From NCBI GenBank assembly GCA_036262935.1, contig DATAHW010000089.1, forward strand, positions 16,084 through 80,083: a stretch of DNA of 64,000 bases, written 5' to 3'. Position 1 is the first letter of the stretch. The number at the start of each line of letters is the position of its first letter. The stretch is from Gemmatimonadales bacterium (GTDB taxonomy: Bacteria; Gemmatimonadota; Gemmatimonadetes; Gemmatimonadales; GWC2-71-9). Below the pieces are notes generated by a model. The model was not told where the DNA came from and made no database searches. It saw only the letters and a program-made list of their open reading frames with translations. Made by a program: the position numbers and the translations under genes. Positions 19,503 through 36,242 of this stretch are shown here, piece after piece.

Positions 19503-19883
19503 ATGCACGATTTGCCATCGCTTCCGTGCTACCCCTGTCCCCACCTGTCGTCCTGCTGCGCCTACGGTGTCACCCTGAGTGACGACGAGGCCGCCGCGAT
19601 CGCGCGCGCGCACGGCGACGGAATGGTCTACCGGACCCGCTGGGGCGAGTGGCGCACGCGGGTGCGTGGCCGTCGCTGCGTATTCCTCAGGGACAACGTG
19701 TGCACCATCCACGCGCAGGCGTACTATCCCGCGGTCTGCCGCGGTTTCCCCTGGACCGACGCGGAAACCGGCGGCCCCTACGAGTACGACCGCACGATCT
19801 GTCCGGAGTTCATCGTGCGCCCGGAGCTGGTGCAGCTTGGCGGCGCCGTGGCGCGGCCGGCACGACCCGGCGGCGATCTGTGA
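19503..19883 (+). CDS. CxxCxxCC (YkgJ-like) putative zinc/iron-chelating protein
   Basis: N-terminal CYPCPHLSSCC cluster plus later C residues (RRCVFL, CTIH, AVCRGFP). The stop overlaps the next start (GTGA). Confidence 0.7.
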   Translation: MHDLPSLPCYPCPHLSSCCAYGVTLSDDEAAAIARAHGDGMVYRTRWGEWRTRVRGRRCVFLRDNVCTIHAQAYYPAVCRGFPWTDAETGGPYEYDRTICPEFIVRPELVQLGGAVARPARPGGDL

Positions 19884-21166
19884 TCCCAGGACTCCTTCGC
19901 GGCTGCGCGATTCCTCTCTCACCCGTCACCCTCGCGATCCTCATGGCCGCTCCCGCCACGGCGCAGACGCCCGATGCCGCGCTCGAGCACGCGCGCGCGC
20001 TGCTCCGGTCCACCCCGCTGATCGACGGCCACAACGATCTCCCCTGGGCGATCCGCACGGCGGAGGGAGCGCCGCGCGACGTCGCCGCGTACGATCTCCG
20101 GCAGCGGACGCCCGGGATGACCGATCTCGAACGACTGAAGGCGGGCCAGGTCGGAGCCCAGTTCTGGTCGATCTACGTCGACGGCGAGATGAAGGACAGC
20201 GGGTACGCGCGGGTGCAGCTCGAGGAGTTCGACATTGCCCGGCGCATGATCGCGCGCTACCCCGACCGGCTCTCGCTCGCGCTCGCGGCGGACGACATCG
20301 AGCGCGATGCGAAGCGGGGCCGGCTGGCGTCGCTCTTGGGCATGGAGGGCGGGCACGTCATCGAGAATTCGCTCGGCGCGCTCCGGTCCTACTACGCCCT
20401 TGGCGCGCGTTACATGACGCTCACCCACAACGTCACCACCGACTGGGCCGACGCGGCGCTCGACAGCGCGCGGCACGGCGGCCTCACCCCCTTCGGCCGC
20501 GAGGTGGTGCATGAGATGAACCGGCTGGGGATGCTGGTGGATCTGGCGCACGTCTCGCCGGGCACGATGAGCGACGCGCTCGACGCCACCGACGCGCCGG
20601 TCATCTTCTCCCACTCCGGTGCGCGCGCGCTGGTGGACCACCCCCGGAACGTGCCCGACTCGATTCTCGCACGGCTGCCGAAGAACGGCGGCGTGGTGAT
20701 GCTGACGTTCGTGCCGCAGTTCGTGTCCACCGAGTTCATGGCGTGGGAGCAGCAGAGCGACAGCGTGTGGAAGCAGCTCAAGGCCACCATCCCCGACAGC
20801 GCCGAGCGCCGGCGGCAGCACGACGCCTGGGAGGCCGGCCATGCCGCCCCCAGCGCCACGCTCGCCCAGGTGGCCGATCATATCGAGCACGTGCGTGACG
20901 TGGCGGGGGTGGACCACGTCGGGATCGGGAGCGACTTCGACGGCATCGAGCACGTGCCGTTGGGACTGGAGGATGTCTCCCGGTTTCCGTTCCTCTTCGC
21001 CGAGCTCATCCGGCGCGGCTGGAGCGATACCGATCTGAAGAAGCTCGCGGGCAGGAATCTGCTCCGCGTGATGCACCAGGCCGAGGCCACCGCCGCCCGT
21101 CTGCAGCGCGAGCGCCAGCCCTCGACCCGGACCATCGAGGAGCTGGACGGCCCCCCGCGGAGCTGA
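19880..21166 (+). CDS. Membrane (renal-type) dipeptidase, peptidase family M19
   Basis: Contains IDGHNDLPW, GMEGGH, RYMTLTHN, DLAHVS, FSHSGA and GIGSDFDG. In-frame GTG 19880 gives a signal-like N-terminus. Confidence 0.9.
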   Translation: MIPGLLRGCAIPLSPVTLAILMAAPATAQTPDAALEHARALLRSTPLIDGHNDLPWAIRTAEGAPRDVAAYDLRQRTPGMTDLERLKAGQVGAQFWSIYVDGEMKDSGYARVQLEEFDIARRMIARYPDRLSLALAADDIERDAKRGRLASLLGMEGGHVIENSLGALRSYYALGARYMTLTHNVTTDWADAALDSARHGGLTPFGREVVHEMNRLGMLVDLAHVSPGTMSDALDATDAPVIFSHSGARALVDHPRNVPDSILARLPKNGGVVMLTFVPQFVSTEFMAWEQQSDSVWKQLKATIPDSAERRRQHDAWEAGHAAPSATLAQVADHIEHVRDVAGVDHVGIGSDFDGIEHVPLGLEDVSRFPFLFAELIRRGWSDTDLKKLAGRNLLRVMHQAEATAARLQRERQPSTRTIEELDGPPRS

Positions 21167-21191
21167 CGTGCCGGACGCTCGCCGACAGCTG

Positions 21192-21285
21192 ACGGCACTG
21201 TCATCCCGAGCGGAGCGAGGGATCTTGCCCGGCCGAGTTCGGACTGCGGAACAGTAGATCGCTCCGCTCGGGATGACAGTGCCGT
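21192..21285. repeat. Perfect 27-bp inverted repeat (acggcactgtcatcccgagcggagcga / tcgctccgctcgggatgacagtgccgt) with a 40-nt spacer
   Basis: Arms at 21192-21218 and 21259-21285 are exact reverse complements. It lies between convergent genes (dipeptidase, SURF1), so it may act as a bidirectional terminator or REP-like element. Confidence 0.85.
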
Positions 21286-21296
21286 TCACCCGCGAC

Positions 21297-21338
21297 CGCT
21301 CACCTCTCACCTCTCACCTCTCACCTCTCACCGCTCAC
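21297..21338. repeat. Heptamer tandem repeat c(g/t)ctcac x6
   Basis: Read directly as cgctcac ctctcac ctctcac ctctcac ctctcac cgctcac. It overlaps the SURF1 stop codon (21328-21330). Confidence 0.9.
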
Positions 21339-22035
21339 CCCTACTCCCCACTCCCCCCACCACCAGCACCGCAAACCCCACCACCATCCCCGCGAAGAGA
21401 AACCACTGGATCGCGTAGCTCAGATGCGGCCCCTCGTCGAGCGGCGCCGGCGCGAGCCGGCGGGGAAACGAAGGCAGCGCGCTGTCCGGGCTCTGCTGGA
21501 TGTAGACCGGCAGTACGTCGTACGGCAGCCGTTCGCGCAGGGCGGCCAGGTCGAGCCGGCGCCAGGTCGTGCGTCCGCCGTGCTCGATCGGCGCCCCGCC
21601 GGCCGGCGGGACCGGCAGCGCGACCCCGCGCACCACCAACTCGCCCGGCTCCTGCAGCCCGTCGAGGTCCACCGTGACGGCGTCCGGCGACGGAACGAAG
21701 CCGCGTTCGACCAGCACCGCCGGCCCCTTGTCACCCAGCAGCAGCGGGGTCACGATCAGCACTCCCGGTGTCCCCTCCAGCACGTTGCCCCTGAGGACGA
21801 CATCCCGCCCCCGGTCGTAGCGCCCGCGGGCCACCACGCGGCGCTGCCCCAGCGACTCCGGGTGCTGCGTGGCCGCGGTGAGGGTGACTTCGGGTGCCAG
21901 GCGGCCGGCCATCGTGGCCGCGTTCGCCGCGCGGCGCTGGTGCAATCGGTCGAGCTGCCACACGCCGAGCCGGGCGAATCCGGCGGCGACCAGCAGCATG
22001 ACGAAGATCAGCAGGCGGCGTGCGGTGGGTGACAT
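21328..22035 (-). CDS. SURF1/Shy1-family cytochrome oxidase assembly protein
   Basis: N-terminal TM plus GVWQLDRLHQRR, C-terminal GPHLSYAIQWF plus a second TM; a typical SURF1 layout. Confidence 0.85.
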   Translation of the reverse strand: MSPTARRLLIFVMLLVAAGFARLGVWQLDRLHQRRAANAATMAGRLAPEVTLTAATQHPESLGQRRVVARGRYDRGRDVVLRGNVLEGTPGVLIVTPLLLGDKGPAVLVERGFVPSPDAVTVDLDGLQEPGELVVRGVALPVPPAGGAPIEHGGRTTWRRLDLAALRERLPYDVLPVYIQQSPDSALPSFPRRLAPAPLDEGPHLSYAIQWFLFAGMVVGFAVLVVGGVGSRGER

Positions 22036-22167
22036 CGCTGTTCAGGATAGAGGACGGTCGGAGCGCCCGGCCGAGCCCCGGGGGAAGCTCGGCGCGGTCC
22101 GGCTCTTGCGCGGGGCGGGGAAGCTACATTCACAGGCGACCGCAACTTAACCACGGCGAGGTAGAAC

Positions 22168-22773
22168 ATGCGGACCCTACGGCGCGGCCTGACCGCCGCG
22201 GCTGCCGCGATGCTGCTCCTCGGAGGCCTGGCCGGCGCGCAGGAGGCGCCCCCGGGCCTGGTCGAGGTGCGGAGCTCTGAACGGCACGGCTTCTGGGGCG
22301 CGCTCGGCGTGGGCGCGGGCGGCGAGGCGTTCGACCTCCGAGACGGCGCCGGCTACAGCGGCGATCTCTACAAGCCCACCGTGTCGCTCCGGCTCGGCGG
22401 CACGCCCAGCCGCTATCTCCGCCTCGGCGGGGAGGTACTCGGCTGGATCAACGACCAGGGCCGCCGCACCGAATCGCTCACCAGCGTACTCTTCATCACC
22501 CAGTTCTATCCCGCGCCCGCTGCCGGCCTCTATCTCAAGGGCGGGCTCGGCCTGGGCCGGAACGAGGTGAGCTTCGACCCTGGTTTCGGCGTGGGTGACA
22601 CCGGGTTCGCCGGTCTTCTCGGCGCCGGCTGGGAAATCCGGGTGGGCCGGCGGCTGTACCTCAATCCGGCCGCGGACCTGGTCGAGCACCGCTATACCGG
22701 CCGCGACGGGGCCGGCTACCGTGAGCGGCTGCTCAACTTCGGACTCGGCGTCCTCTTCCAGTCCGGGGGCTGA
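22168..22773 (+). CDS. Small outer-membrane beta-barrel protein (OmpA-beta-barrel/OmpW-like size)
   Basis: Signal peptide LGGLAGAQ. Alternating hydrophobic, G/Y-rich strands (GFWGALGVGAGG, LYLKGGLGLG, GLLGAGWEIRVG). Confidence 0.7.
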   Translation: MRTLRRGLTAAAAAMLLLGGLAGAQEAPPGLVEVRSSERHGFWGALGVGAGGEAFDLRDGAGYSGDLYKPTVSLRLGGTPSRYLRLGGEVLGWINDQGRRTESLTSVLFITQFYPAPAAGLYLKGGLGLGRNEVSFDPGFGVGDTGFAGLLGAGWEIRVGRRLYLNPAADLVEHRYTGRDGAGYRERLLNFGLGVLFQSGG

Positions 22774-22818: not shown

Positions 22819-23538
22819 ATGAGAGAGTTCGCTCGCGTTGTCGGTCTGGCCACGGCGCTCGCGCTCCCGGGCCTGTGGGGCTGCGGCGGCGATCTCACGC
22901 TCCCCGAGTCCACCGGGGCTGGGCTCGCGCTCGCGGTCGTCCAGGGCAACGGCCAGCAGGGGACGGTCGGGCAGCCGCTCCCGAACCCCGTCGTCGTGCT
23001 GGTCCGCAGCGACGCCGGGCAGCCGATCGCCAACCGGCAGGTGGAGTTTGCGCCTGCGGAGGGCCAGGCGGCCAGCTTCGATCCGGACACCGCTGTCACC
23101 GACTCGAGGGGGGAGGCGGTCACCAAGTGGGTCCTGGGGACCGCTCCGGGCGTCTACACCGCGGAGGCACGCGTCCTGGCCCAGGGAGACGCGCCGCCGC
23201 CGGTGCCACTCCAGGCCGCGGCCGTGGCGGGCACCCCCGACACTATCCGGCCGGTGAGCCACACCGGCCAGCCCGGCCAGCCAAATCAGACGCTGCCCGA
23301 GCCGCTCGTCGTTATGGTGCTCGATCGATTCGGCAACCCGGTCGCCGGCGCCGAAGTGGCCTGGAGCGTCGTGGCCGGCGGAGGCCAGGTGAGCGCGGAC
23401 CGGGTGGCCACGGCGACGGACGGCACCTCCAGCGTCACTTGGACACTGGGCGCGGGCATCGGACTCCAGCGGGTCACGGCCAATGTGGGTGGCACCTCGG
23501 GCTCCCCGGTCACCTTCACCGCCGTGGTTCTCTTCTGA
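22819..23538 (+). CDS. Ig-like (Big_1/invasin-type) repeat lipoprotein 1
   Basis: MREFARVVGLATALALPGLWGC lipobox followed by GGDLTLP. Two repeats of the type VVQGNGQQGTVGQPLPNPVVVLV..D..G.P. Confidence 0.8.
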   Translation: MREFARVVGLATALALPGLWGCGGDLTLPESTGAGLALAVVQGNGQQGTVGQPLPNPVVVLVRSDAGQPIANRQVEFAPAEGQAASFDPDTAVTDSRGEAVTKWVLGTAPGVYTAEARVLAQGDAPPPVPLQAAAVAGTPDTIRPVSHTGQPGQPNQTLPEPLVVMVLDRFGNPVAGAEVAWSVVAGGGQVSADRVATATDGTSSVTWTLGAGIGLQRVTANVGGTSGSPVTFTAVVLF

Positions 23539-23610
23539 GCGAGGGTGTGGCGGCGGAGGCGCAACACCCGCGGGCGGAGGGCCAGCCAAGCGCTTGATGC
23601 TCAATCACCT

Positions 23611-26226
23611 ATGACGGGGCGTCGCGCCTCTCACCGGGCACATATCCTGCTTCATCCACGGCTTTCCTCTACCCGACATCCTGTGACCACCACCCGGCGT
23701 CGCCTGGCGTACTCGCTCTCCTTCGGACTCGCCGCGGCCTCGTCGGCCTGCGGCGGCGACGGCCTCGTGCTGCCCAACGAGTCGCGTCCGGCGTCCATCA
23801 GCGTCGTGAGCGGCGACGGTCAGTCCGCCGCCGCGGGAGCGGCGTTGGGCCAGCCGCTGGTGGTGAGTGTGGTGGACGCGCTCGAGCGCCCGGTCCAGGG
23901 CCAGACGGTGGCGTTCACGGTCGACGCGGGCGGCGGAACGGTGGCGCCCGCCACCGCATCGACTGACGCCGACGGGCTTGCCTCCGCGAACTGGACCCTG
24001 GGAACCGGAGCGGGCACGCAGAGCGTGAAGGCGCAGGTGCAGGCCGCGGGGCTCCCCGCGCCGCTCGTCGCCGGGTTCACCGCCACCGCGACATCCGGGA
24101 CCGGCGCCATCCTCGAGCCCGTCAGCGGCGACAATCAAACGGCTCCGGTCAAGTCCGCGCTCGCGGATTCGCTCGTGGTGCGCGTGACCGACGCGCTCCA
24201 GAACCCGGTGGCCGGCGTCGAGGTGCAGTGGTCGGTGGATGGCGGCGGCTCCATCAGCCCGGTGACGGTGACCACCGGCGCCGACGGTCTGGCCGCGGCG
24301 GAGCGGGTGCTCGGCAGCGCTGCCGGGACCCAGACGGCCCAGGCCGCGGCGACCGGGCTCGCGCCGGTGACGTTCACCCACACCGCGGTCGCCGCCAATC
24401 CCACCGTGCTGCGCCTCGTCTCGGGCGACGGACAGACCGGCTCCGTGGGCAACCCGCTCGCCGAGCCCGTGGTGGTGCGTCTCGAAGACGAAAATGGGAA
24501 CGGCGTGGGCGACAAGTCCGTCACCTTCGTGGCCGGACCGGGCGCGGGCAGCACCGATCCGGTGAATGCCACGACCGATCCCAACGGCTTCGCCTCCAGC
24601 GTCTGGACCCTCGGGTCGAGCCTCGGCGGGAAGACGCTGACGGCCATCTTCTCGGGTCTGCCGCCCGTGGCCTTCACCGCCACCGCGGTCGCCGCGACGC
24701 CCACGCAGCTCGCCTTCACCCGGCCCCCGCAGACCACGGCGGCCGGGGCCAGCTTCAGCCCGTCCATCCAGGTCACCGTGCAGGACGCCGCTGGTAACAC
24801 CGTCACCAGCGCCAACGACGCAGTCACGCTGGCCATCGGCAGCAATCCGGCGGGCGGCACCCTTTCCGGGACGGTTACGGTCAACGCGGTGAACGGCGTC
24901 GCGTCCTTCGGAAACGTCTCGATCGACCAGGTGGGCTCCGGCTACACGCTGACCGCGTCCGCCGCGGGGCTCGCCGGCGCCACGAGCCCGGCGTTCGACA
25001 TCGTGCCCACGCAGGTGAATACGATCATCGTGATCACCAGCGACACGCCCGACCCATCGACCATCGGCGTGCCGTTTACGGTCACCTGGAACCTGAACTC
25101 GTCCGGCACCGCGCCGATCACCGGCAACGTCACGGTGACGGTCAACGGAACCGCCGACACCTGCAGCGCGCCCGCCGCGCTGGGCGCCGGAAGTTGTGAT
25201 CTGACCATCACCCTCAACGGCTCGCACCGCCTCACCGCCACCTTCCCGGGCGACGCGAACTACAAGAGCTCGACCGACATCGACGCGCACCAGGTGAAGG
25301 GGACGACGAGCACGACGCTCGCGTCATCGGTGAACCCTTCGACCGTGGGCCAGAGCATCACGCTGACCGCGCATGTCGCGCCCAGCGGCGGGAGCACCGG
25401 GAGCCCCGGCGGGCAGGTGCAGTTCATGGAGGGGGCCACGCTGCTCGGGACCAGAAGCGTGAACGGAGCGGGGGACGCGGCGCTGGACATCAGCTCCCTG
25501 GGGGAGGGACTCCATTCGATCACCGCGGCCTACCAGGGCTCGACCACGTTTGAGGCCAGCACATCGGCGGCGGTCGATCAGCAGGTGAACGCGGCTCCGA
25601 ACGTGCCGCCGACCGCCGTGGACGATGCCACCGGGTACTCCGTGCTCGAGGATGGAACGCTGAACGCGGGTACGAGCGTGCTGCAGAACGATTCCGACAA
25701 CGATGGGCCTTCGCCGCTCGTGGCGCGCAATGCCAGCGACCCGGCGAATGGCACGGTCGCACTCAACAGCGATGGGACGTTCACCTACACTCCCGACCCT
25801 GATTTCAACGGCACCGATACCTTCACCTACGAGGCGTTCGACGGAGCGGCCGCATCGACCGCCACCGTGACGATCACCGTCACGCCCGTCAACGACGCCC
25901 CGAGCTTCAACTCGGGCGGCAACGTCACCCAGAGCGACGCGGCGGGCCAGTTCGATCAGCCGTGGGCCACAGCTCTGAGCGCCGGTCCCACCAACGAGAG
26001 CGGGCAGTCGTTGAGCTTCGTCACGACGCTGGTCAATCCGTTGAACGCGTTGCTGTTTGCTCAGCAGCCAAGCGTGGACCCGACGGGCCGGCTCACGTTC
26101 ACCGCCGCCGCGCTCGCTTCGGGCACCGTGGATGTCCAGGTCCACATCGTGGACGACGGCGGCACCGCGAACGGCGGCGTCGACGCCAGCGGCGACCAGC
26201 CGTTCACGATCACTCTCACGCCTTAG
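23611..26226 (+). CDS. Large Ig-like repeat lipoprotein 2 with a C-terminal cadherin-like (VNDAP) module
   Basis: Lipobox ASSAC followed by GGDGLVLP. Contains many VSGDGQ..G..L..PLVV.V.D..GNPV repeats, Cys-pair Ig repeats (TCSAPAALGAGSCDLTIT), then TAVDD..Y.V.ED..L and VNDAPSF. Alternative start GTG 23683. Confidence 0.85.
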   Translation: MTGRRASHRAHILLHPRLSSTRHPVTTTRRRLAYSLSFGLAAASSACGGDGLVLPNESRPASISVVSGDGQSAAAGAALGQPLVVSVVDALERPVQGQTVAFTVDAGGGTVAPATASTDADGLASANWTLGTGAGTQSVKAQVQAAGLPAPLVAGFTATATSGTGAILEPVSGDNQTAPVKSALADSLVVRVTDALQNPVAGVEVQWSVDGGGSISPVTVTTGADGLAAAERVLGSAAGTQTAQAAATGLAPVTFTHTAVAANPTVLRLVSGDGQTGSVGNPLAEPVVVRLEDENGNGVGDKSVTFVAGPGAGSTDPVNATTDPNGFASSVWTLGSSLGGKTLTAIFSGLPPVAFTATAVAATPTQLAFTRPPQTTAAGASFSPSIQVTVQDAAGNTVTSANDAVTLAIGSNPAGGTLSGTVTVNAVNGVASFGNVSIDQVGSGYTLTASAAGLAGATSPAFDIVPTQVNTIIVITSDTPDPSTIGVPFTVTWNLNSSGTAPITGNVTVTVNGTADTCSAPAALGAGSCDLTITLNGSHRLTATFPGDANYKSSTDIDAHQVKGTTSTTLASSVNPSTVGQSITLTAHVAPSGGSTGSPGGQVQFMEGATLLGTRSVNGAGDAALDISSLGEGLHSITAAYQGSTTFEASTSAAVDQQVNAAPNVPPTAVDDATGYSVLEDGTLNAGTSVLQNDSDNDGPSPLVARNASDPANGTVALNSDGTFTYTPDPDFNGTDTFTYEAFDGAAASTATVTITVTPVNDAPSFNSGGNVTQSDAAGQFDQPWATALSAGPTNESGQSLSFVTTLVNPLNALLFAQQPSVDPTGRLTFTAAALASGTVDVQVHIVDDGGTANGGVDASGDQPFTITLTP

Positions 26227-26340
26227 CCGAAGCGGCTTCGCGGCCGCTCCTGTGACCCATCTCATCGCCCGACTTCCCCGGCTGGTGTAGCTTTCCGCTC
26301 GCTCAGTCCGCGCACCCCGTCATCCGATCCGCCGAGTCCT

Positions 26341-29154
26341 GTGCCGACCATTCGAATCGCCCTTCGCCTCCTCCCCGCGGTGGGTCTCCTGCTCAGTTGC
26401 GGCGGAGGCGATCTCGTGCTCCCCTCCGAAGGCGAGCCCGCCGCCATCACGATCGTTCAGGGCGACGCCCAGTCCGGCCGCGTCGGCAACACGCTGGCCG
26501 AGCCGGTGGTCGCGCGAGTGACCGACTCCCAGGGCCGGCCGGTGGCCGGGATCCCGGTGGCCTTCGCATTCACGGGCGGGGTGGCCGCCACCGTGGCCCC
26601 CGATACCGCGATGACTGACGCCGACGGCCGGGCTCCCTTCCAGATCCTCCTCGGCCCCCAAGTGGGTTCGGGGAGCGCCGAAGTGCGCGTGAGCGGCTCC
26701 GCGGGGAGTGGCGCACTCGCCGCGCCGGTCCAGTTCACCGCGCTTCCAGCCAATGCGAACGAGCTGGTGCCCGTCTCCGGCGACAGCCAGTCGGCCCGGG
26801 TCGGCGGGGCGCTGGCGGACCCGCTGGTGGTGCAGGTGACCGACGCGTTCGGCAACCCGATCGCGGGGGTGGACGTCGCCTGGACCGCGGTCGATGGGGG
26901 CAGCGTGAGTCAGGCGACGGTGCAGACCGGAGACGACGGGCTCGCCTCGGTCGAGGTGACGCTCGGGCCCAACGCCGGCATCCAGCACACGACGGCGAGC
27001 GCGCCCGGGCTGGCCGGATCACCGGTCACCTTCACCGCCACCGCGCTCCCCGGCGCCGCCACCACACTCGAGGTCGTATCCGGCGACGGGCAGACCGCGC
27101 TGGTGGGGACGCCCGTCCCCGATCTGCTCGTGGTCCGCGCTCGGGATGCGGGCGGGAACCCCGTCGCGGGACTTGGCGTCACCTGGCTGGTCACGGCGGG
27201 CCGCGGGAGTGTCGCGCCGCAGAACGGCACCACCGGCCAGGACGGCCAGGCGTCCACGAGTTGGACGCTGGGGCCGGAGCCCGGGGCGAACACCGTCGCC
27301 GCGGTAATCTCCGGCGTGGGCACCGTCGAGTTTACCGCGACCGGCAATCCCGGCGCGCCGCCGGCGCTTTCGATCGAGACCCAGCCGCCCGCGACGGCCG
27401 TGCGTGGCCTGCCGCTGAGCCGCGCGCCCGCCGTTCAGTTGCGCGAGCCGGACGGGTCCGCGCGCGCACAGGCGGGTGTCCGGGTCAGCGTCAAGCTCGC
27501 CACCGCGGGTGGGACACTCCGCGGCACCCTGACACGAACCACCGGGCCGAGCGGCGGCGCCGAGTTCGGCGGCCTCGTCATCGAGGGGCCGCCTGGTACG
27601 TACGCGCTTGCCTTCTCGGCCCCGGGCTACTCCGGTGCCACCTCCGCGGGCATCGCGCTTGCCCGCGCGCCCAGCACCATCGAGATCACGTCCGACAAGC
27701 CCGACCCCTCCGCGCCCGGCGAGGCGGTGCAGGTGGCGTTCCGCGTGCAGTCCGCGGGCGGCGCGCCGGATGGCACGGTGCAGGTAACGGCTGACGACGG
27801 CTCGAGCTGCAGCGCGAACGTGGGCGCCGGTGCGTGCGCGCTGACGCTCACCGCCGTGGGCTCGCGCACGATCACCGCGACCTACTCCGGCAGCGCCGAC
27901 TTCGAGGGGGCGACGGACACCGAGTCGCACGAGGTCCAGGCGGCGCCGCCTCCCGTGCCGAGCGCGACGAGGTCTACGGTGGCCGTGGGCAACACCACGC
28001 TTCCGCTCGGTGGGAGCACCCAGGTCATCGTGACTGTCCGCGACGCGGCCGGCGGCCCCCTGCAAGGCGTGGCGGTGAGCGTCACCGGTTCGGGCGCGGC
28101 TAACCCCGTCACCCCGGCCTCCGTCACAACCGACGCGGGCGGTGCCGCGCGGTTCACCTTCGACGCCGCGGTCGCGGGCACGATGACGCTTACGGCCGTG
28201 GCGGGCGGCGTGACGCTCGGAGCGCAGCCATCGGTAACCGTTCAGCGCGCCGAGACAAAGACGAGCATTACCGCGGACGCGCCGGATCCTTCCGCGCCAG
28301 GCGAGGTGGTGACGGTGGCCTTCAGCGTCACCAGCACCGCGGGAACGCCGACCGGCACCGTCAAGATCACCGCGAGCGGTGGCGATGAGACCTGCTCCGG
28401 GAGCCTGGCCCAGGGGAGCTGCGCGCTCACGCTCACGACCGCCGGCAACAGGACCCTCACCGCGACCTACTCGGGCGATGACAACTTCTCGCCGAGCTCC
28501 GGCGTCGCGCCCCACATCGTCGGCTCGCCGAGCCTCTCGATCCAGAGGCAGCCGTCGAGCACCGCGGTCAGCGGAATCCCCTTCCACGATCAGCCGGAGC
28601 TGCAGCTCGAGGACGCAAACGGACACAAGCTCGGCCAGGCCGGCGTGGCCATCACGGCCGCACTCGCACCCGGCGCCGGTGGCTCGCTCTCGGGGACGCT
28701 CACTCGACTGACGGACAAGGACGGCCGAGCCAAGTTCGACGACCTTGCCATTACCGGCCCGGAGGGCTCGTACGCCATCGAGTTCAGCGCGGCCGGCTTC
28801 GCGTCCGTGACCTCGAGCACGATCACGCTGCAGCCCGCGCCGCCTTCCCCGACCACCACTACGATCACGTCCGACCTGCCTGATCCATCGGTTGCCGGGG
28901 TGCCGATCCCAGTGAGCTTCACCGTCACGAGTCCCGCGGGCACCCCGGCCGGCAGCGTGGTCGTCACCGCGAGCGGCGGCGAGGAGACGTGCTCCGCCAG
29001 CGTGGCCGAGGGAGGCTGCACACTCACGCTCACCGTGGCCGGGTCCAGGACCCTCACCGCCTCATTCAGCGGCGCGGGCTTCGCCGGCAGTTCGGATGAT
29101 GAGGATCATTTCGTCGTCGGGCTGGGTGGCTCGTCCGTCGCATCCGGACCGTGA
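26341..29154 (+). CDS. Large Ig-like repeat lipoprotein 3
   Basis: GTG start. Lipobox LLLSC followed by GGGDLVLP. At least three different Ig-like repeat types recur, including three Cys-pair repeats (ETCS....G.C.LTLT). Confidence 0.85.
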   Translation: MPTIRIALRLLPAVGLLLSCGGGDLVLPSEGEPAAITIVQGDAQSGRVGNTLAEPVVARVTDSQGRPVAGIPVAFAFTGGVAATVAPDTAMTDADGRAPFQILLGPQVGSGSAEVRVSGSAGSGALAAPVQFTALPANANELVPVSGDSQSARVGGALADPLVVQVTDAFGNPIAGVDVAWTAVDGGSVSQATVQTGDDGLASVEVTLGPNAGIQHTTASAPGLAGSPVTFTATALPGAATTLEVVSGDGQTALVGTPVPDLLVVRARDAGGNPVAGLGVTWLVTAGRGSVAPQNGTTGQDGQASTSWTLGPEPGANTVAAVISGVGTVEFTATGNPGAPPALSIETQPPATAVRGLPLSRAPAVQLREPDGSARAQAGVRVSVKLATAGGTLRGTLTRTTGPSGGAEFGGLVIEGPPGTYALAFSAPGYSGATSAGIALARAPSTIEITSDKPDPSAPGEAVQVAFRVQSAGGAPDGTVQVTADDGSSCSANVGAGACALTLTAVGSRTITATYSGSADFEGATDTESHEVQAAPPPVPSATRSTVAVGNTTLPLGGSTQVIVTVRDAAGGPLQGVAVSVTGSGAANPVTPASVTTDAGGAARFTFDAAVAGTMTLTAVAGGVTLGAQPSVTVQRAETKTSITADAPDPSAPGEVVTVAFSVTSTAGTPTGTVKITASGGDETCSGSLAQGSCALTLTTAGNRTLTATYSGDDNFSPSSGVAPHIVGSPSLSIQRQPSSTAVSGIPFHDQPELQLEDANGHKLGQAGVAITAALAPGAGGSLSGTLTRLTDKDGRAKFDDLAITGPEGSYAIEFSAAGFASVTSSTITLQPAPPSPTTTTITSDLPDPSVAGVPIPVSFTVTSPAGTPAGSVVVTASGGEETCSASVAEGGCTLTLTVAGSRTLTASFSGAGFAGSSDDEDHFVVGLGGSSVASGP

Positions 29155-29257
29155 GAGGCGTCGAAGTGCAATTTCTTTCATCGTCCCGAGGCGCTGACGG
29201 CTCGCGGATGTGATCCGAGTCCTAGCCGAGGCGGCATCCGCGCGGTAGCGTCAAGCC

Positions 29258-30016
29258 ATGCCCGTGCCCAGCTCATGGTTCTGCCTCGCGTTTGCCGCGT
29301 CGCTCGTCGCGTGCGGTGGCGACCTCACGCTTCCCGCGACCCCGTCCGGCGGTGACGGGTCGCCCACCGGTCCGGAGCCGCCGTCGGGCGCCGCAGTGTC
29401 GGCGGGTGACGATCGTTACTCCACGAGGGAGGGCGACGACCACACGCTCTCGATTCCATCACCGGGCGTGCTCGGGAACGACCTGGTCGAGGGCGTGCCC
29501 GGCACCGGACTCCAGGCCATCCTGCTCGAGGCCCCCGAGCACGGCCGTCTCGCGCTCCACGCCGACGGCTCGCTCGACTACACCCCCGATGCCGATTGGT
29601 TCGGCAGCGAGCGCTTCAGCTATCGCGCGGCGCTTGGCGCCACCGAGTCCGCGCCGGCGGAAGTCGTGATCGAGGTGCAGAGCGTGAACGACGCGCCACG
29701 GTTTACTCCCGGCCCCGACCAGCGGGCCGAGCACAAGGCGGATGAGCAGCAGGTCGAACACTGGGCTGGCGACATCGCCCCCGGCCCGGCCAACGAGTCG
29801 GACCAGCAGGTGAGCTTCGTGGTCGAGGTGTTGTCGGGGAACGACGTCCTGAAGGGGACGCCCACGATCAGCCCGTCGGGCACGCTTACCTATCGGCCGT
29901 CGCACCACGAGGGGAGTGCTACCATCGGGGTGCGTCTCCAGGACGACGGGGGTACGGCCAACGACGGCACCGACACCAGCCCGATCCACGTGCTGACGAT
30001 ATCGGTCGACGAGTAG
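29258..30016 (+). CDS. Cadherin-like (VNDAP) lipoprotein 4
   Basis: Lipobox SLVAC followed by GGDLTLP. The GNDL...DGSLDYTPD..W.G.D.F.Y, VNDAPRF and DDGGTANDGTD modules parallel the C-terminus of lipoprotein 2. Confidence 0.8.
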   Translation: MPVPSSWFCLAFAASLVACGGDLTLPATPSGGDGSPTGPEPPSGAAVSAGDDRYSTREGDDHTLSIPSPGVLGNDLVEGVPGTGLQAILLEAPEHGRLALHADGSLDYTPDADWFGSERFSYRAALGATESAPAEVVIEVQSVNDAPRFTPGPDQRAEHKADEQQVEHWAGDIAPGPANESDQQVSFVVEVLSGNDVLKGTPTISPSGTLTYRPSHHEGSATIGVRLQDDGGTANDGTDTSPIHVLTISVDE

Positions 30017-30117
30017 CGCGCGTTCGTCCGTTCGATGGCCGGGTCCTTTCGGTCTCCGGTGCATCGCGATACAATCCGGGTTTCCTCGGCCACTCGATCC
30101 CTCCTCGCCGTGGTCCC

Positions 30118-32031
30118 ATGATGCACCTGCTCCGTCGCCCCCTTGTATCGATCGCGCTGCTGGCCCTCGTGGCCTGCGGCGGGGGAGACCTCACGCTCCC
30201 GAACGAGGGTCAGCCGGCCAACGTGTCGGTGGTCTCGGGCGACGGCCAGACGGGGACGATTCTCGAGCCGCTCCCCGACTCCCTCGTCGTCCAGGTGACC
30301 GACCGCTTCGGGAACCCGGTGCCGGGGGTCGAGGTCACCTGGGCCGCGGAAGGCGGAGGCGACGTCCAGCCGGCCACGGCCACGACCGGAAACGACGGGC
30401 GTGCGGCCACCCAGCGCATCCTCGGCAGCCAGCCGGGGAGCTACGGCACCACCGCCCTCGTCACGCTGCTGCCCGAGAACGTCGCATCGTTCACCAACAC
30501 CGCCGTAGCAGCCAAGCTGGTGCTGGTGACGCAGCCCGGAGCGACGGCCACTTCGGGCGCGGTGATCGACCCGCAGCCGGTGCTGCAGCTCCAGGACGCG
30601 AGCGGCAATCCCGCGGCGCGGCAGGGCGTCGCGGTCACCGTGCAGATCGCGTCGGGCGAAGGGACGCTTCGCGGCACCACCACCCAGACCAGCGATGCCA
30701 CGGGGCAGGTCGCCTTCACCGACATCGCCATCGTCGGGGCGCCCGGGGCGCGCACACTCATCTTCGCCGCCTCCGGGTATGCCTCCGCCATCAGCACGAC
30801 GGTCTCCCTCGGCGTGGGTGCGCCGGCATCGGTCGTGCCTGCCGCCGGCGATGCGCAGAGCGCACCCGCCGGGACGGCGGTGCCAGTGGCGCCTGCCGTG
30901 GTGGTGCGCGATGCGGCCGGTACGCCCGTGGCGGGCCTGCAAGTCGCCTTCGTGGTAGCATCGGGCGGGGGGAGCGTCACCGGCGGCGACGCGGTCACCG
31001 ACGCCGACGGCGTCGCCACGGTCGGGCGCTGGACTCTTGGCGGCAGCGTGGGCGGCAACACGCTTCGTGCCACCGTGGCGGCGGACAACGTGAACGGCAA
31101 TCCGGTAGTCTTCACCGCGACTGCGGTCCCCGGGGCGCCGAGCGCGGACAAGAGCTCCGTCTCCGCTTCGCCCGGAACGATTTCGGCGTCGGCCGGATCG
31201 GACGGCAGCGACATAACCGTCATCGTGCGCGACAGCCGAGGCAACCCGCTCCCCGCACAGGGCGTCACGCTCGACGCCACGGGCGACGGGGTGAGCCTGA
31301 CCCAGCCCGGGCCGACGGACGCCTCCGGCACCAGCACCGGTCGCTTCAGCGCGACCACGGCGGGGGACCACACGATCTCGGCTTCAGTGGGCGGGACGAC
31401 GATCGGCAGGGCCACCGTCACCGTTGTTCCGGGAGCGCCCGTGGCCTCCGCGAGCGCCGCGGCCGTGCCGGCCGGCACGGCAGGCACGCCGACGCAGGTC
31501 GAAGTGACACTGAAGGACCAGTTCGGCAATCCGGTGCCCGGCGCGGCGGGCCAGATCACCGTGGCGGTGTCGGGCGCCAACCCTGTCGCCGGCGTCGACA
31601 TCGAGGACCGCGGCGGCGGCGCCTATCGCGCCGGCTATCGGCCGGTGCACATCGGTGTCGATCAGGTGGACGTGCGCGTCGGCGGGCAGGCCGTGCCGGG
31701 GAGCCCGTTCGCGAGCGCCGTGTCGCCGGGCGCGCCGGACCCCGGGCGGACCACCGCCGACGTCCCGGACGGCACCTTCGGGCAGACCCTGGAGTTCGTG
31801 GTGCACGTCGCTGACAGCGAGGGAAATCCGGTCGGGCACGGCGGAGACCAGGTGGCGGTGACGGTCCAGGGCGTGACCGACGGCGCCCGGCCAGTGCAGG
31901 ATGCGGGCGACGGCACCTACCACGCCACCTGGCGCCCATTCGTGTTCGGCACCTTCCAGGTGCAGATCACCTTGAACGGCGTCCCCATCGCCGGCAGCCC
32001 GTTCACCACCAGGATCGACTTCTTCCGGTAG
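30118..32031 (+). CDS. Ig-like repeat lipoprotein 5 with C-terminal filamin-type repeats
   Basis: Lipobox ALVAC followed by GGGDLTLP. Big_1-like repeats are followed by two GSPF-containing repeats (VPGSPFASAV, IAGSPFTTRI) typical of filamin/ABP280 folds. Confidence 0.85.
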   Translation: MMHLLRRPLVSIALLALVACGGGDLTLPNEGQPANVSVVSGDGQTGTILEPLPDSLVVQVTDRFGNPVPGVEVTWAAEGGGDVQPATATTGNDGRAATQRILGSQPGSYGTTALVTLLPENVASFTNTAVAAKLVLVTQPGATATSGAVIDPQPVLQLQDASGNPAARQGVAVTVQIASGEGTLRGTTTQTSDATGQVAFTDIAIVGAPGARTLIFAASGYASAISTTVSLGVGAPASVVPAAGDAQSAPAGTAVPVAPAVVVRDAAGTPVAGLQVAFVVASGGGSVTGGDAVTDADGVATVGRWTLGGSVGGNTLRATVAADNVNGNPVVFTATAVPGAPSADKSSVSASPGTISASAGSDGSDITVIVRDSRGNPLPAQGVTLDATGDGVSLTQPGPTDASGTSTGRFSATTAGDHTISASVGGTTIGRATVTVVPGAPVASASAAAVPAGTAGTPTQVEVTLKDQFGNPVPGAAGQITVAVSGANPVAGVDIEDRGGGAYRAGYRPVHIGVDQVDVRVGGQAVPGSPFASAVSPGAPDPGRTTADVPDGTFGQTLEFVVHVADSEGNPVGHGGDQVAVTVQGVTDGARPVQDAGDGTYHATWRPFVFGTFQVQITLNGVPIAGSPFTTRIDFFR

Positions 32032-32435: not shown

Positions 32436-35400
32436 GTGACCGTGCCGGACGATAGCCCGGAGCCCGCCATCGAGCTTCCCGCCGCCGCCGCTCCGCCGAA
32501 CGGTGGAGTGATGGGCCGGCTCATCCGGCAGAAGGACTGGTCGGCCACACCGCTCGGGCCTATCCACGCATGGCCTCAGAGCCTCCGCACGGCCGTGGGC
32601 ATCTGCACCGAATCGCGTTACCCGATGGCGATCTGGTGGGGTCCCGGCATCGTTCAGCTCTACAACGACGGCTACATCCCGGTGCTCGGAGCCAAACACC
32701 CGCACGCGCTCGGGCAGAACGGGCGCGAGTGCTGGGCCGAGATCTGGGACCTGGTCGGCCCGTTCTACACTCAGGTCATGGTGCGGGGCGAGCCCACCTG
32801 GTCGGACGACCTGCTGCTCCCCATGGATCGCTACGGGTACGTCGAGGAGACGTACTTCACCTTCTCCTACAGCCCCATTCGTGACGAGTCGGGCGGGGTC
32901 GGCGGCCTGCTCATCACCTGCGCCGAAACGACCCCGCGCGTAGTCGGCGAGCGTCGACTCGGTACGCTTCGCGACCTGGGTGCGCGCACCGGCGACGCGC
33001 GGACCGTGCGCGCCGCGTGCGATCTCGCGATGGGTATTCTGGCGCAGAACACGGCCGATGTGCCGGCCGCCGCGCTGTATCTGCTCGACCCGGCCATGCC
33101 GATCGCTAGACTTGCGGGGCGAGCCGGCCCCCCGGAAGCGCTCCCGCTTGCCGCCGCGGCCCTGGATGTGTCCGCCGCCTCGCCGTCGCCGCTCGCCCGG
33201 GTGTTCGAGACCGGCCAGGCCGCGGTGCTGCACCCCGAGGGCTCGGCCGAGCTGATCGTGCTGCCGGTCGCGGGCGCTGCCCGCACGACTCCGGTCGGCG
33301 TCCTGCTCGCGGCGGCCAACTCCCGCCGCCGCCTGGACGACTCGTATCGCGGATTCTTCGAGCTCATCGCGGGTCACATTGCGAGCGCCATCGCCAACGC
33401 GCTGGCCTACGAGGAGGCGGAACGGCGCGCCGAGGTGCTGGCCGAGCTGGATCGGGCCAAGACGGCATTCTTCAGCAATGTGAGCCACGAGTTCCGGACG
33501 CCGCTCACGCTGCTGCTCGGTCCGCTGGAAGACGCCCTGCTCGACACCGGTGAGCCGCTGCCCGCGCGGCAGCGCGATCGGGTGGAGGTTGCGCACCGCA
33601 ACAGCCTGCGGCTGTTGCGGCTGGTGAACACGCTGCTGGACGTGGCCCGGCTCGAGGCGGGCCGGATGGAGGCGGCGTTCGAGCCGGTGGACCTCGCCGC
33701 CCTGACGGCCGACCTCGCCAGCGGCTTCCGCTCCGCCGCGGAGCGGACGGGGCTCCGCTTCACGGTGGAGTGCGCGCCGCTGGCCGAGGCGGTGTTCGTC
33801 GATCGGGATATGTGGGAAAAGATCGTTCTCAACCTGCTCAGCAACGCGCTCAAGTTCACGGTCCGGGGCGAAATCGGGGTACGGCTGACGCCGCTCGATG
33901 GATCGGTGCGGCTCGAGGTGCGCGACACCGGCGTCGGGATCCCCGCGGAAGAGCTGCCGCGCATCTTCGAGCGGTTCCACCGCGTGCGTGAGGCGCGTGG
34001 TCGATCGCTCGAAGGGACCGGCATCGGACTCTCCCTGGTGCAGGACCTGGTGAAGCTGCACGGCGGCGCCATCGAGGTCGCCAGCGTCCCGTCCCAGGGG
34101 AGCACGTTCCGGGTCATCCTGCCCACGGGGCGTGCGCACCTGCCCGCGGACCAGATCGGCGAGCCGGGTGGGCGTTCGGCGGGCGCCATCGGGCCGGCCG
34201 CCTACGTCGAGGAGGCGCTCCGGTGGCTCCCGAGCGACGCGCCGGCCTCGGGGCGACAGGGCGCCCGCATCGTGCTGGCGGACGACAACGCCGACATGCG
34301 CGAGTACGTCGTGCGCCTCCTCGGCGAGGGATGGCGGGTCGAGGCCGTGGTGGACGGACGCGAGGCGCTGGAGGCGGTCCGCCGCGAGCTGCCGGACCTG
34401 GTCATCTCCGACGTCATGATGCCGGGGCTGGATGGCTTTGCGCTGCTCGCCGCGCTACGGGCGGACACCAGCACCCGGTCGCTCCCGGTGATCCTGCTCT
34501 CGGCACGCGCGGGCGAGGAGGCGCGCGTCGAGGGCCTGCGCGCCGGCGCCGACGACTACCTCGTCAAACCCTTCACCGCGCGTGAGCTGCTCGCCCGGGT
34601 CGAGTCCATGCTCACGCTGGCCAGGGTGCGCCGCGAGTCGGAGGCGGCGGTCCGCGCGAGCGAGGAGCGGTACCGGGCATTCGTCGAGCTGACCTCCGAT
34701 GCGGTGTGGCGGATCGAGCTCGAAGGGCCGGTGCCGGTGGCGCAGTCGGCGGACGAGCAGATCGACCGGATCTATCAGCATGCCTGGCTCGCCGAGTGCA
34801 ACGATGCCATGGCGCACATGTACGGCGTGGCCTCCGCCGCCGAGCTGACCGGAGCGCGCCTGGGCGAGCTGCTGCCTCGCACCGATCCGGCCAACCTGGC
34901 CTACCTGCACGCCTTCATCGCCAACAGCTACCGTCTCATCGACGCCGAGTCCAACGAGGTCGGGCTCGACGGCCGCCCGCGCTACTTCGTGAACAACCTG
35001 TTCGGCATCGTGGAGGATGGCGGCCTCGTCCGCGTCTGGGGCTCGCAGCGGGACATCACTGAGCGCCGCCGGACCATGGAGCGGCTGCAACGGGCCCAGC
35101 GGATGGAGTCGGTCGGCAAGCTGGCGGGCGGGATCGCGCACGAGGTGAACAACATGATGTCCGTCGTGCTCGGCTGCTCCGAGTTCGTGCTCCGCCGCCC
35201 CGACCTCGACCCCGCGGTGCGCGCCGACGTCGAGCAGGTGCGGCAGGCCGCCGAGCGCTCGGCCGCCATCACGGCCCAGCTCCTCGCGTTCGGCCGCCGG
35301 CAGATGCTGCAGCCGGTGCCGCTCGATCTCAACGCCGTCGTGCGCGAGCTGGAGCCGGTCCTCCGCCGGACGCTGGGGGAGAGCGCGACCGTCGAGCTCC

Positions 35401-36242
35401 GTCTCGGCTCGCTCGGCGCCGTCCTCGCCGACCGGGGCCAGCTCCAGCAGGTGCTCATCAATCTGGCCCTCAATGCGCGCGATGCCATGCCCCGCGGCGG
35501 CCGGTTCACGGTCGAGACCGCGGCCGGCGAGCTCGCCGACGCGGATGCCGCCGAGCACCCCGAGGTCCGCTTGCGGTTCGGACTCCACGCCCTCCTGCGC
35601 GTGAGCGACACCGGCCACGGCATGGACCGGGAAACGGCGAGTCACGTTTTCGAGCCGTTCTTCACCACCAAGGGCGTGGGCAAGGGGACCGGGCTCGGAC
35701 TCTCGACCGTATACGGCATCGTCAAGCAGTCGGACGGCTACGTGTGGGTGGATTCCGAGCCGGGAGAGGGCACCACCTTCCGGATCTATCTCCCCCTGGC
35801 CGGGGCGGCGCTCACGGCTGAAAGCGTGGCGGCGGATCACGCCGCGGGCGGCGAGGAGACCGTCCTGGTCGTCGAGGACGAGGTGCTGGTGCGGAGCCTC
35901 GCCGTGCGCGTGCTCGAGGGACGAGGCTATGAGGTGCTGGTGGCGGAGAGCGGCGAAGCGGCGCTCGATCTGCTGGACGCCCGTCCCGACCAGGTGCACC
36001 TCGTCGTGAGCGACGTCGCCATGACCGGGATCGGTGGGCGCGAGCTCGGCCGCCGGCTGGCCGAAGCGCATCCCGACCTGCCGGTCCTCTACATGAGTGG
36101 CTATCCGGCGGATGAGGCCGTGCGGAACGGTCTGCTGGAAGAACGGCAGCCCTTCATTCAGAAACCGTTCGCACCCGAAGCTCTCGCGGACGCGGTGCGC
36201 GCGCTGCTCGATCGCACGGTTGCGCGCCGGGTTCAGGCGTAG
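32436..36242 (+). CDS. Double hybrid sensor histidine kinase: PAS-GAF-HisKA-HATPase-REC-PAS-HisKA-HATPase-REC
   Basis: H-box 1 is FFSNVSHEFRTPL with G-box GTGIGLSLV. REC1 has ADDNADM..LVISDVMMPGLDG..KPF. H-box 2 is AGGIAHEVNNMM with GTGLGLSTVYGIV. REC2 has LVVEDE..LVVSDVAMTG. GTG start. Confidence 0.9.
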   Translation: MTVPDDSPEPAIELPAAAAPPNGGVMGRLIRQKDWSATPLGPIHAWPQSLRTAVGICTESRYPMAIWWGPGIVQLYNDGYIPVLGAKHPHALGQNGRECWAEIWDLVGPFYTQVMVRGEPTWSDDLLLPMDRYGYVEETYFTFSYSPIRDESGGVGGLLITCAETTPRVVGERRLGTLRDLGARTGDARTVRAACDLAMGILAQNTADVPAAALYLLDPAMPIARLAGRAGPPEALPLAAAALDVSAASPSPLARVFETGQAAVLHPEGSAELIVLPVAGAARTTPVGVLLAAANSRRRLDDSYRGFFELIAGHIASAIANALAYEEAERRAEVLAELDRAKTAFFSNVSHEFRTPLTLLLGPLEDALLDTGEPLPARQRDRVEVAHRNSLRLLRLVNTLLDVARLEAGRMEAAFEPVDLAALTADLASGFRSAAERTGLRFTVECAPLAEAVFVDRDMWEKIVLNLLSNALKFTVRGEIGVRLTPLDGSVRLEVRDTGVGIPAEELPRIFERFHRVREARGRSLEGTGIGLSLVQDLVKLHGGAIEVASVPSQGSTFRVILPTGRAHLPADQIGEPGGRSAGAIGPAAYVEEALRWLPSDAPASGRQGARIVLADDNADMREYVVRLLGEGWRVEAVVDGREALEAVRRELPDLVISDVMMPGLDGFALLAALRADTSTRSLPVILLSARAGEEARVEGLRAGADDYLVKPFTARELLARVESMLTLARVRRESEAAVRASEERYRAFVELTSDAVWRIELEGPVPVAQSADEQIDRIYQHAWLAECNDAMAHMYGVASAAELTGARLGELLPRTDPANLAYLHAFIANSYRLIDAESNEVGLDGRPRYFVNNLFGIVEDGGLVRVWGSQRDITERRRTMERLQRAQRMESVGKLAGGIAHEVNNMMSVVLGCSEFVLRRPDLDPAVRADVEQVRQAAERSAAITAQLLAFGRRQMLQPVPLDLNAVVRELEPVLRRTLGESATVELRLGSLGAVLADRGQLQQVLINLALNARDAMPRGGRFTVETAAGELADADAAEHPEVRLRFGLHALLRVSDTGHGMDRETASHVFEPFFTTKGVGKGTGLGLSTVYGIVKQSDGYVWVDSEPGEGTTFRIYLPLAGAALTAESVAADHAAGGEETVLVVEDEVLVRSLAVRVLEGRGYEVLVAESGEAALDLLDARPDQVHLVVSDVAMTGIGGRELGRRLAEAHPDLPVLYMSGYPADEAVRNGLLEERQPFIQKPFAPEALADAVRALLDRTVARRVQA

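Follow-up and report, generated by a model that had tools for sequence, protein, structure and literature searches.

We identified a short conserved peptide block in a 64-kb stretch of DNA (64,000 nucleotides of contig DATAHW010000089.1, positions 16,084 to 80,083; hereafter the window) from the metagenome-assembled genome (MAG) of a soil Gemmatimonadales bacterium. The block directly follows the lipobox cysteine of each of five lipoproteins, p1 to p5, whose genes lie in tandem on the plus strand behind the gene for a small outer-membrane protein (OMP). It is under strong protein-level purifying selection, it is specific to the Gemmatimonadales lineage, and it is confined to one expanded adhesin-like lipoprotein family with immunoglobulin (Ig)-like domains and to the p4 derivative of that family. 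The block is probably a family-specific tag with a putative function in localisation or docking. The five genes and their motif sites, in coordinates of the window, are as follows.

p1, plus strand, 22819..23538 (open reading frame (ORF) list, Pfam): lipoprotein of 239 aa with two Big_1 domains. Motif site CGGDLTLP, cysteine at 22882 (22882..22905, plus strand; six-frame regular expression and DNA pattern).
p2, plus strand, 23683..26226 (Pfam): lipoprotein of 847 aa with three Big_1 domains, Big_3_5, a Big_9/cadherin-like domain and a C-terminal domain. Motif site CGGDGLVLP with an inserted glycine, cysteine at 23749 (23749..23775, plus strand; six-frame regular expression).
p3, plus strand, 26341..29154 (ORF list, Pfam): lipoprotein of 937 aa with four Big_1 domains, Big_3_5 and CarboxypepD_reg-like repeats. 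Motif site CGGGDLVLP, cysteine at 26398 (26398..26424, plus strand; six-frame regular expression and DNA pattern).
p4, plus strand, 29258..30016 (Pfam): lipoprotein of 252 aa in which a linker rich in Pro and Gly joins the motif to a Big_9/cadherin-like domain; Big_1 is absent. Motif site CGGDLTLP, cysteine at 29312 (29312..29335, plus strand; six-frame regular expression and DNA pattern).
p5, plus strand, 30118..32031 (ORF list, Pfam): lipoprotein of 637 aa with three Big_1/Invasin_D3 domains and two filamin-type repeats. Motif site CGGGDLTLP, cysteine at 30175 (30175..30201, plus strand; six-frame regular expression and DNA pattern).

A first-pass annotation had placed the block right after the lipobox in all five lipoproteins. 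This is borne out by a six-frame search over the 64 kb, in which C-G-G-(G)-D-(G)-L-x-L-P directly follows the lipobox cysteine in five of five proteins, at exactly five plus-strand sites and at no site beyond p1 to p5. The degenerate DNA pattern for C-G-G-(x)-D-L-x-L-P has four matches in the window compared with 0.00 expected from 100 shuffles; p2 escapes this pattern because of its extra glycine. In all five proteins the motif is preceded by a lipoprotein-type signal peptide with its positive n-region, hydrophobic h-region and lipobox cysteine. Lipoprotein membership was assigned with the lipobox pattern [LVI][ASTVI][GAS]C. The lipoboxes of p1 (LWG-C) and p2 (SSA-C) are atypical, but those of their orthologues are canonical (LLG-C, LAA-C, VLA-C). 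Six further lipoproteins of the window, with mature termini CRDETT, CQPPAA, CATGLP, CGSRGD, CAPKVK and CGGEASK, had been described as free of the motif; an independent lipobox predictor recovers them and agrees that all six lack it.

More than 100 different lipoproteins carry the block, and they come from many genomes of Gemmatimonadales and from metagenomes of soil. We scanned genomes (one per GTDB species) and metagenomes; the figures for each scan are drawn from the 120 loci listed for it, and most contigs were reached via the motif itself. Among the genome-scan matches listed, the block lies behind a hydrophobic signal peptide in at least 13 Gemmatimonadales species genomes and in a single genome from elsewhere, a Haliangiales MAG (L047). 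The other in-frame matches listed have no signal peptide and look like chance occurrences. In the Haliangiales protein (L047:1073), CGGGDLALP stands behind a convincing signal peptide of the lipoprotein type; its downstream sequence is not Ig-like, and the block may be a chance or independent occurrence there. Among the metagenome matches listed, 99 have a signal-peptide-like segment upstream, and in 86 of these a Big_1 domain follows the block. The remaining 13 consist of five truncated family members, one p4-type protein, one PrcB_C lipoprotein and six false matches. The lineage-specificity that had been proposed from the window alone thus holds, with the Gemmatimonadales as the lineage.

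The block persists while its surroundings diverge. In a syntenic contig (L001; ENA contig_90203, 33022-53576 of a 236-kb contig) it is kept in the orthologues of p1, p2, p3 and p5, and the p2-specific inserted glycine is likewise kept in p2 orthologues (CGGDGIVLP). The signal peptides of this contig can barely be aligned to those of the window, and the p1 orthologue still reads CGGDLTLP despite its diverged signal peptide. In the family at large, both the signal peptides and the linkers that follow the block diverge while the block stays. Column information is 3.9-4.3 bits across the motif compared with 1.1-2.3 bits across the signal peptide and approximately 3.3 bits in the best columns of the Ig domain. 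Every motif codon shows synonymous variation (GGC/GGT/GGA/GGG, GAC/GAT, CTC/CTG/CTT/TTG, CCC/CCG/CCT), and the constraint therefore acts on the protein. Gene conversion and an element at the DNA or RNA level were rejected as explanations for the same reason. As a motif-independent control we took the Big_1-first lipoproteins on fetched contigs whose DNA fails the search patterns (n=25). All 25 of these proteins, which were not selected via the motif, have D-[LIV]-x-L-P ending at +8/+9, and the small residues ahead of the aspartate vary (CGADLVLP, CSADLTLP, CGTDLLLP, CNEGDLLLP). This gives C-x(2-3)-D-(G)-[LIV]-x-L-P as the core. Codon variation, column information and the control set together uphold the earlier description of the block as conserved.

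The position of the block is set by its distance from the lipidated cysteine and not from the folded domain, in keeping with the anchor-adjacent signal or partner-recognition element envisaged in the first-pass annotation. It stands immediately after the acylated cysteine with its proline at +8 or +9, and this distance stays fixed while the start of the first Big_1 domain ranges from mature residue 13 to 27. In an AlphaFold2 (AF2) model of mature p5 residues 1-130, built from an 18-row alignment (mean predicted local distance difference test score (pLDDT) 87), the Ig domain is predicted with confidence from residue 16, and residues 1-10 are without secondary structure (mean pLDDT 56). The best PDB fold matches of this model are intimin D00-D1, invasin InvE and FdeC Ig domains. 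We rejected the idea that the motif is an integral strand of the first Ig domain, given the low-confidence coil of the model, the variable spacing to the domain and the homologous lipoproteins that lack the motif. These last were found with a profile that covered the first Ig domain and excluded the block; it matched 30,262 cluster representatives. The best 150 of the 30,262 include at least 17 lipoproteins with an Ig domain close behind the cysteine; among these 150 the block occurs only in P0130, P0163 and, as a variant lacking the aspartate, P0024, and the other Ig-first lipoproteins, which lie outside this clade, have unrelated tethers.

Further evidence comes from p4, whose Pfam matches are Big_9 and Cadherin_5 only, with no match to Big_1. 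Over its residues 93-250, p4 shares 39% identity with the C-terminal 160 aa of p2 (E=7e-27), and the p4 N-terminus aligns to that of p2. From these alignments p4 appears to be derived from a p2-like protein after loss of the Ig repeats. Persistence of the block through this loss speaks against a function linked to the Big_1 fold. Four diverged p4-type proteins (window p4, L064:6283, L175 and L194:741) keep the motif without Big_1, and the low-complexity linker between the block and the cadherin-like domain ranges from about 6 to about 27 residues in this type. We also considered whether the block is a vestigial inter-domain linker. Two internal junctions of p3 are similar (FTALP and TATALP), but D-h-x-h-P is found in none of 50 internal domain junctions of the family, whose consensus is V-T-F-T-A-T-A, and a general origin of this kind was rejected. 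Taken together, the variable domain spacing, the retention in p4, the differing tethers and the junction count identify the block as an autonomous anchor-proximal tether element and not as part of a domain. It is independent of which folded domain follows and of the distance to that domain.

The wider Ig-domain family outside the window (P0018-P0164) includes many giant lipoproteins that share another block after the cysteine, C-[ST]-[DE]-x-x-(T)-G-P or C-x-[DE]-R-x-V-T-G-P (for example CSESTGP, CTDDSTGP, CLDRAVTGP, CMDRTVTGP, CGREVTGP and CTDSVLGP). D-L-x-L-P may thus be the version that one lineage has of a wider theme, in which a proline near +8 comes after an acidic residue.

The first-pass annotation had compared the block with the lipoprotein sorting signals of Bacteroidota and Proteobacteria. 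To assess its specificity we ran a lipobox predictor blind to the motif on 560 kb of sampled Gemmatimonadales-like contigs. The block was found in 79 of 79 Big_1-first lipoproteins and in one p4-type protein, and in none of the 35 other predicted lipoproteins, several of which are probably spurious antisense ORFs, so that the real denominator is smaller. The claim that the block marks one functional class, Ig-like and cadherin-like repeat lipoproteins, is thus sustained. Members that begin with Big_1 (PF02369, intimin/invasin-type) domains include p1, p2, p3 and p5, which score 67, 61.5, 119.8 and 121.8 bits, respectively, with a Pfam gathering cut-off of 34.9. A word-indexed protein search with a profile of the signal peptide plus motif returned five short fragments of the same family only and was set aside as uninformative about other families.

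Among the metagenome matches listed, a single lipoprotein of an unrelated family carries the full motif, the PrcB_C protein of contig L213 (L213:426-968, minus strand). Its 119 Gemmatimonadota PrcB_C homologues read CGGSDLTQPPG, CAGSDVTQP, CSSSEISTSPPG and similar, and L-x-L-P is kept in none of the 119. We therefore rejected the L213 protein as evidence for a general signal, and regard it as a chance variant of the other tether CGGSDLTQPPG. The Gemmatimonadota PrcB_C lipoproteins (approximately 166 aa; P0167-P0286) have a tether of their own, C-[GAS]-[GS]-S-[DE]-[LVI]-[TS]-x-P-P-G, with an acidic residue at +5 in nearly all 120; it superficially resembles the motif and lacks L-x-L-P.

The evidence therefore says that the block is not a general sorting code, and the analogy to a proteome-wide signal, whether of the Bacteroidota or the Lol +2 type, fails on the 35 other lipoproteins and on the unconserved PrcB-like occurrence. 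The first-pass annotation had also named an outcome that would speak against a signal: a motif present only in these paralogues as residual duplication signal, with no proteome-wide enrichment. The lack of enrichment is what we find in the sampled contigs (0 of 35), whereas the block is clearly not a residue of duplication.

Surface display of lipoproteins in diderm bacteria is understood in few lineages, through the lipoprotein export signal (LES) of the Bacteroidota, Slam in Neisseria, and in Borrelia. In Lol avoidance an aspartate near the lipidated cysteine is the classical determinant, at +2 in Enterobacteria (the +2 rule of E. coli, which also calls for a permissive +3), and residues +3/+4 are decisive in Pseudomonas. 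The block resembles this proteobacterial system in that residues just past the lipidated cysteine decide the compartment there and aspartate is key. However, the aspartate is never at +2 here, where we find glycine in 28 of 29 aligned sequences, serine in one of the 29 and asparagine in one variant; the conserved block reaches +8/+9 with leucine and proline, and the passengers look extracellular. The Slam-dependent class is defined by an adjacent gene for a Slam (DUF560) outer-membrane protein and a C-terminal beta-barrel domain in the lipoprotein. In the window the neighbour is a 201-aa OMP_b-brl-like protein and not DUF560, and the C-terminal domains of the lipoproteins are of the Ig, filamin or cadherin-like kind.

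The experimentally defined LES of the Bacteroidota (Lauber et al. 2016) consists of at least two acidic residues (+3 to +6) after a polar or positive residue, as in K-(D/E)2, SDDDD and SDDFE (PMC5080379), and marks hundreds of unrelated lipoproteins (PMC5080379, PMC12578637). The block shares with it a short motif containing an acidic residue right after the +1 cysteine, a critical position relative to that cysteine, and an association with surface-type proteins (PMC5080379); the organism of the window, like the hosts of the LES, belongs to the Fibrobacteres-Chlorobi-Bacteroidetes (FCB) group. Unlike the LES, the block has one invariant aspartate, at +4/+5, to which no variants but CGGDD and CGGED add another acidic residue, and it marks one protein family, with no occurrence among the 35 predicted non-Ig lipoproteins of the 560-kb sample. 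Neither the two acidic residues nor the spread over unrelated families that characterise the LES are seen. The block is thus outside the LES and Lol-avoidance classes as they are defined, yet it could work in a similar way. It belongs to a known type of feature, a determinant just past the lipobox, for which there is no curated NCBIfam model; our search of NCBIfam found none covering the motif.

The passengers resemble those of the inverse autotransporter adhesins intimin and invasin in their Big_1/Invasin_D3 Ig-like repeats. In contrast to these adhesins there is no fused beta-barrel and no LysM, and the arrays are anchored by the N-terminal lipid instead. By gene arrangement only, the cluster can be likened to the phase-variable BT1927/BT1926 loci of B. 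thetaiotaomicron, which encode an S-layer lipoprotein and an OmpA-like barrel proposed to be its anchor or secretion partner (PMC4611039, PMC12578637, bioRxiv 10.1101/521070). In both, large lipoprotein genes adjoin the gene for a small predicted beta-barrel. However, the barrel gene comes first here whereas BT1926 is downstream of BT1927, and at other loci the majority of motif genes lack a neighbouring barrel gene. The barrel gene of the window is as follows.

OMP, plus strand, 22168..22773: predicted small outer-membrane beta-barrel protein of 201 aa with a signal peptide, at the head of the cluster (Pfam OMP_b-brl).

The Pfam OMP_b-brl match covers profile positions 3-175 of 175 (E=6e-6) at 27 bits, with a cut-off of 28.7 bits. 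A PDB sequence search with the protein gave no match, and a single-sequence AF2 model was uninformative (pLDDT 31). In 12 loci of the window type, a homologue of 43-82% identity lies directly upstream of the first lipoprotein with the motif and shares its orientation. For 42 of 54 first-in-cluster or solitary motif genes, no OMP homologue could be detected within 1.5 kb upstream, and the upstream neighbours of these genes are unrelated housekeeping genes (aminotransferase, Ser/Thr kinase, SDR, sulfatase). An obligatory link to an upstream OMP was accordingly rejected, as one is present at only 12 of 54. The gene order of an M19 membrane dipeptidase, SURF1 on the opposite strand, the OMP barrel and the Ig-lipoprotein cluster (window 19649-22773 plus the cluster) is common to L001, L090, L132, L174, L177, L227 and L234. 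The OMP travels with this conserved neighbourhood, and the adjacency may therefore be inherited gene order. Together with the 42 genes that have no OMP, this argues that a cis-encoded partner is no general feature of the motif genes. In L001 the cluster is split into many short gene calls; the orthologues of p2, p3 and p5 are split and the M19 and SURF1 matches fragmented. These breaks look like frameshift errors of long-read assembly rather than pseudogenes, and the same holds for P0001 and P0005, both of them fragments that are chimeric or frameshifted.

We tentatively propose that the block is a recognition element for localising this lipoprotein family, most likely for surface display. As C-x(2-3)-D-(G)-[L/I/V]-x-L-P it is a short and, in the model, flexible segment beside the lipid anchor, common to an expanded Gemmatimonadales-specific family of adhesin-like proteins with Big_1, Big_3_5, filamin-type and cadherin-like repeats. 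The element may be read at the membrane when the Ig-array lipoproteins are localised, and it would direct them to the cell surface, the site of action of intimin/invasin-like Ig arrays, or hold them there. The putative reader would be a component that handles this family and not a general sorting machinery. A more far-reaching version, which we consider rather doubtful, is that C-x(2-3)-D-L-x-L-P is a true surface-export signal of the Gemmatimonadota, a second LES-like signal of the FCB group that is chemically different, with its hydrophobic-proline core and single aspartate, and read by a putative outer-membrane flippase or a factor associated with BAM (the machinery for beta-barrel assembly), dedicated to Ig-array adhesins. 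Several points weigh against localisation to the surface. A genuine sorting code should also mark surface lipoproteins of unrelated families, and the block is found in one family and its p4 derivative; the one PrcB-like protein with the full motif, that of L213, is a chance variant of a different tether. Families with looser variants might escape sampling that was mostly led by the motif and covered 120 loci per scan. The invariant hydrophobic-proline core L-x-L-P sets the block apart from the LES, and an aspartate near the cysteine has another possible meaning in inner-membrane retention. Our literature searches found no localisation data for any Gemmatimonadota lipoprotein.

The block might instead serve docking, such that the tether binds an outer-membrane partner, either the small barrel encoded at the cluster head or other family members, and thereby fixes how the Ig arrays are assembled. 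This idea fits the OMP_b-brl-like gene that lies directly ahead of the first motif lipoprotein and points the same way, both in the window and at 12 loci with 43-82% identity. It also fits the confinement of the motif to the proteins of such clusters and their paralogues. However, we consider docking unlikely, since 42 of the 54 first or solitary genes do without the barrel, the adjacency may be inherited with the M19 peptidase and SURF1 genes, and the motif is so nearly invariant that covariation with a partner cannot be measured. It is less probable still that the block is an heirloom with only a local structural role, inherited as a cap or spacer at the N-terminal side of the first Ig domain (such as the vestige of an inter-domain junction) and without targeting information. 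One could cite for this the near confinement of the motif to one homologous family, its usual place 5-6 residues ahead of the conserved P-A-x-I-x-V-V-x-G-D-x-Q domain start in Big_1-first members, and the similar register of the two p3 junctions. Several findings point the other way: the predicted model does not pack the block onto the domain, the internal junctions lack D-h-x-h-P (0 of 50), the domain start varies between mature residues 13 and 27, the four diverged p4-type proteins keep the block without Big_1, and homologous Ig-first lipoproteins fold without it. The block is also more conserved than any column of the Ig domain.

We give little credence to inner-membrane retention, in which the invariant aspartate at +4/+5, in its context, would block extraction by LolCDE and leave the proteins on the periplasmic face of the inner membrane. 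An aspartate close to the lipidated cysteine is a known determinant of Lol avoidance, and predicted periplasm-facing outer-membrane lipoproteins, such as an MltD-like SLT/LysM protein (CATGLP, CASQLP), lack the motif. However, residue +2 is glycine, serine or asparagine and never aspartate, and known avoidance signals have no counterpart of the conserved L-x-L-P. The passengers match modules of intimin, invasin, FdeC and cadherin-like adhesins that are normally extracellular, and tandem-Ig proteins of 640-940 aa would be long for the periplasm. It is very improbable that the block is a processing site, where cleavage inside or just behind D-L-x-L-P by a dedicated protease would free the Ig arrays from the lipid anchor. 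The general shape, a short invariant exposed peptide between anchor and passenger, would suit such a site, but no protease gene is consistently linked at the loci examined; the nearby M19 membrane dipeptidase belongs to the housekeeping synteny and is no endopeptidase.

The Gemmatimonadota are abundant in soils. We found nothing in the searchable literature on surface display or sorting of Gemmatimonadota lipoproteins, and no paper describing the motif. A sharply conserved, family-restricted pentapeptide at a fixed distance from the cysteine is a handle that can be mutated, and a bait for the reading machinery or partner. By this simple signature, annotators can also recognise a large adhesin-like lipoprotein family of the Gemmatimonadales, whose members are now named 'hypothetical' or 'Ig-like domain-containing protein'. 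These are the only annotations given to the records HEX2637444-HEX2637449 (MAG TPA: Gemmatimonadales bacterium), to which the proteins of this gene cluster are exact matches.

The likeliest start of p2 is the GTG at 23683, as in the gene calls on identical contigs and in NCBI record HEX2637446; the longest p2 ORF begins 46 codons upstream of it (region 23545-23683). For p3, an automatic call of 924 aa on identical metagenome contigs begins inside the signal peptide (26341-26400), which it would truncate, and p3 would then no longer be recognisable as a lipoprotein. Residues 596-618 of p5 (31903-31971), in its last filamin-type repeat, have a near-threshold match to the NCBIfam 'choice-of-anchor X' model NF041940 (24.3 bits, cut-off 25). 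A scan of the cluster for promoters and terminators found no more than expected by chance. On the minus strand, ORFs of up to 561 aa run antisense across the Ig-lipoprotein genes between 22177 and 31601 (for example 23605-25290 and 27019-28626), and a naive predictor scores one of them (24782) as a lipoprotein. Such ORFs are typical of DNA with 72% GC and are not genes. Downstream of the cluster, the region 32436-36242 encodes a hybrid histidine kinase of 1268 aa, of which a clear homologue in the same position is found only in L001. This kinase could regulate the Ig-lipoprotein cluster.

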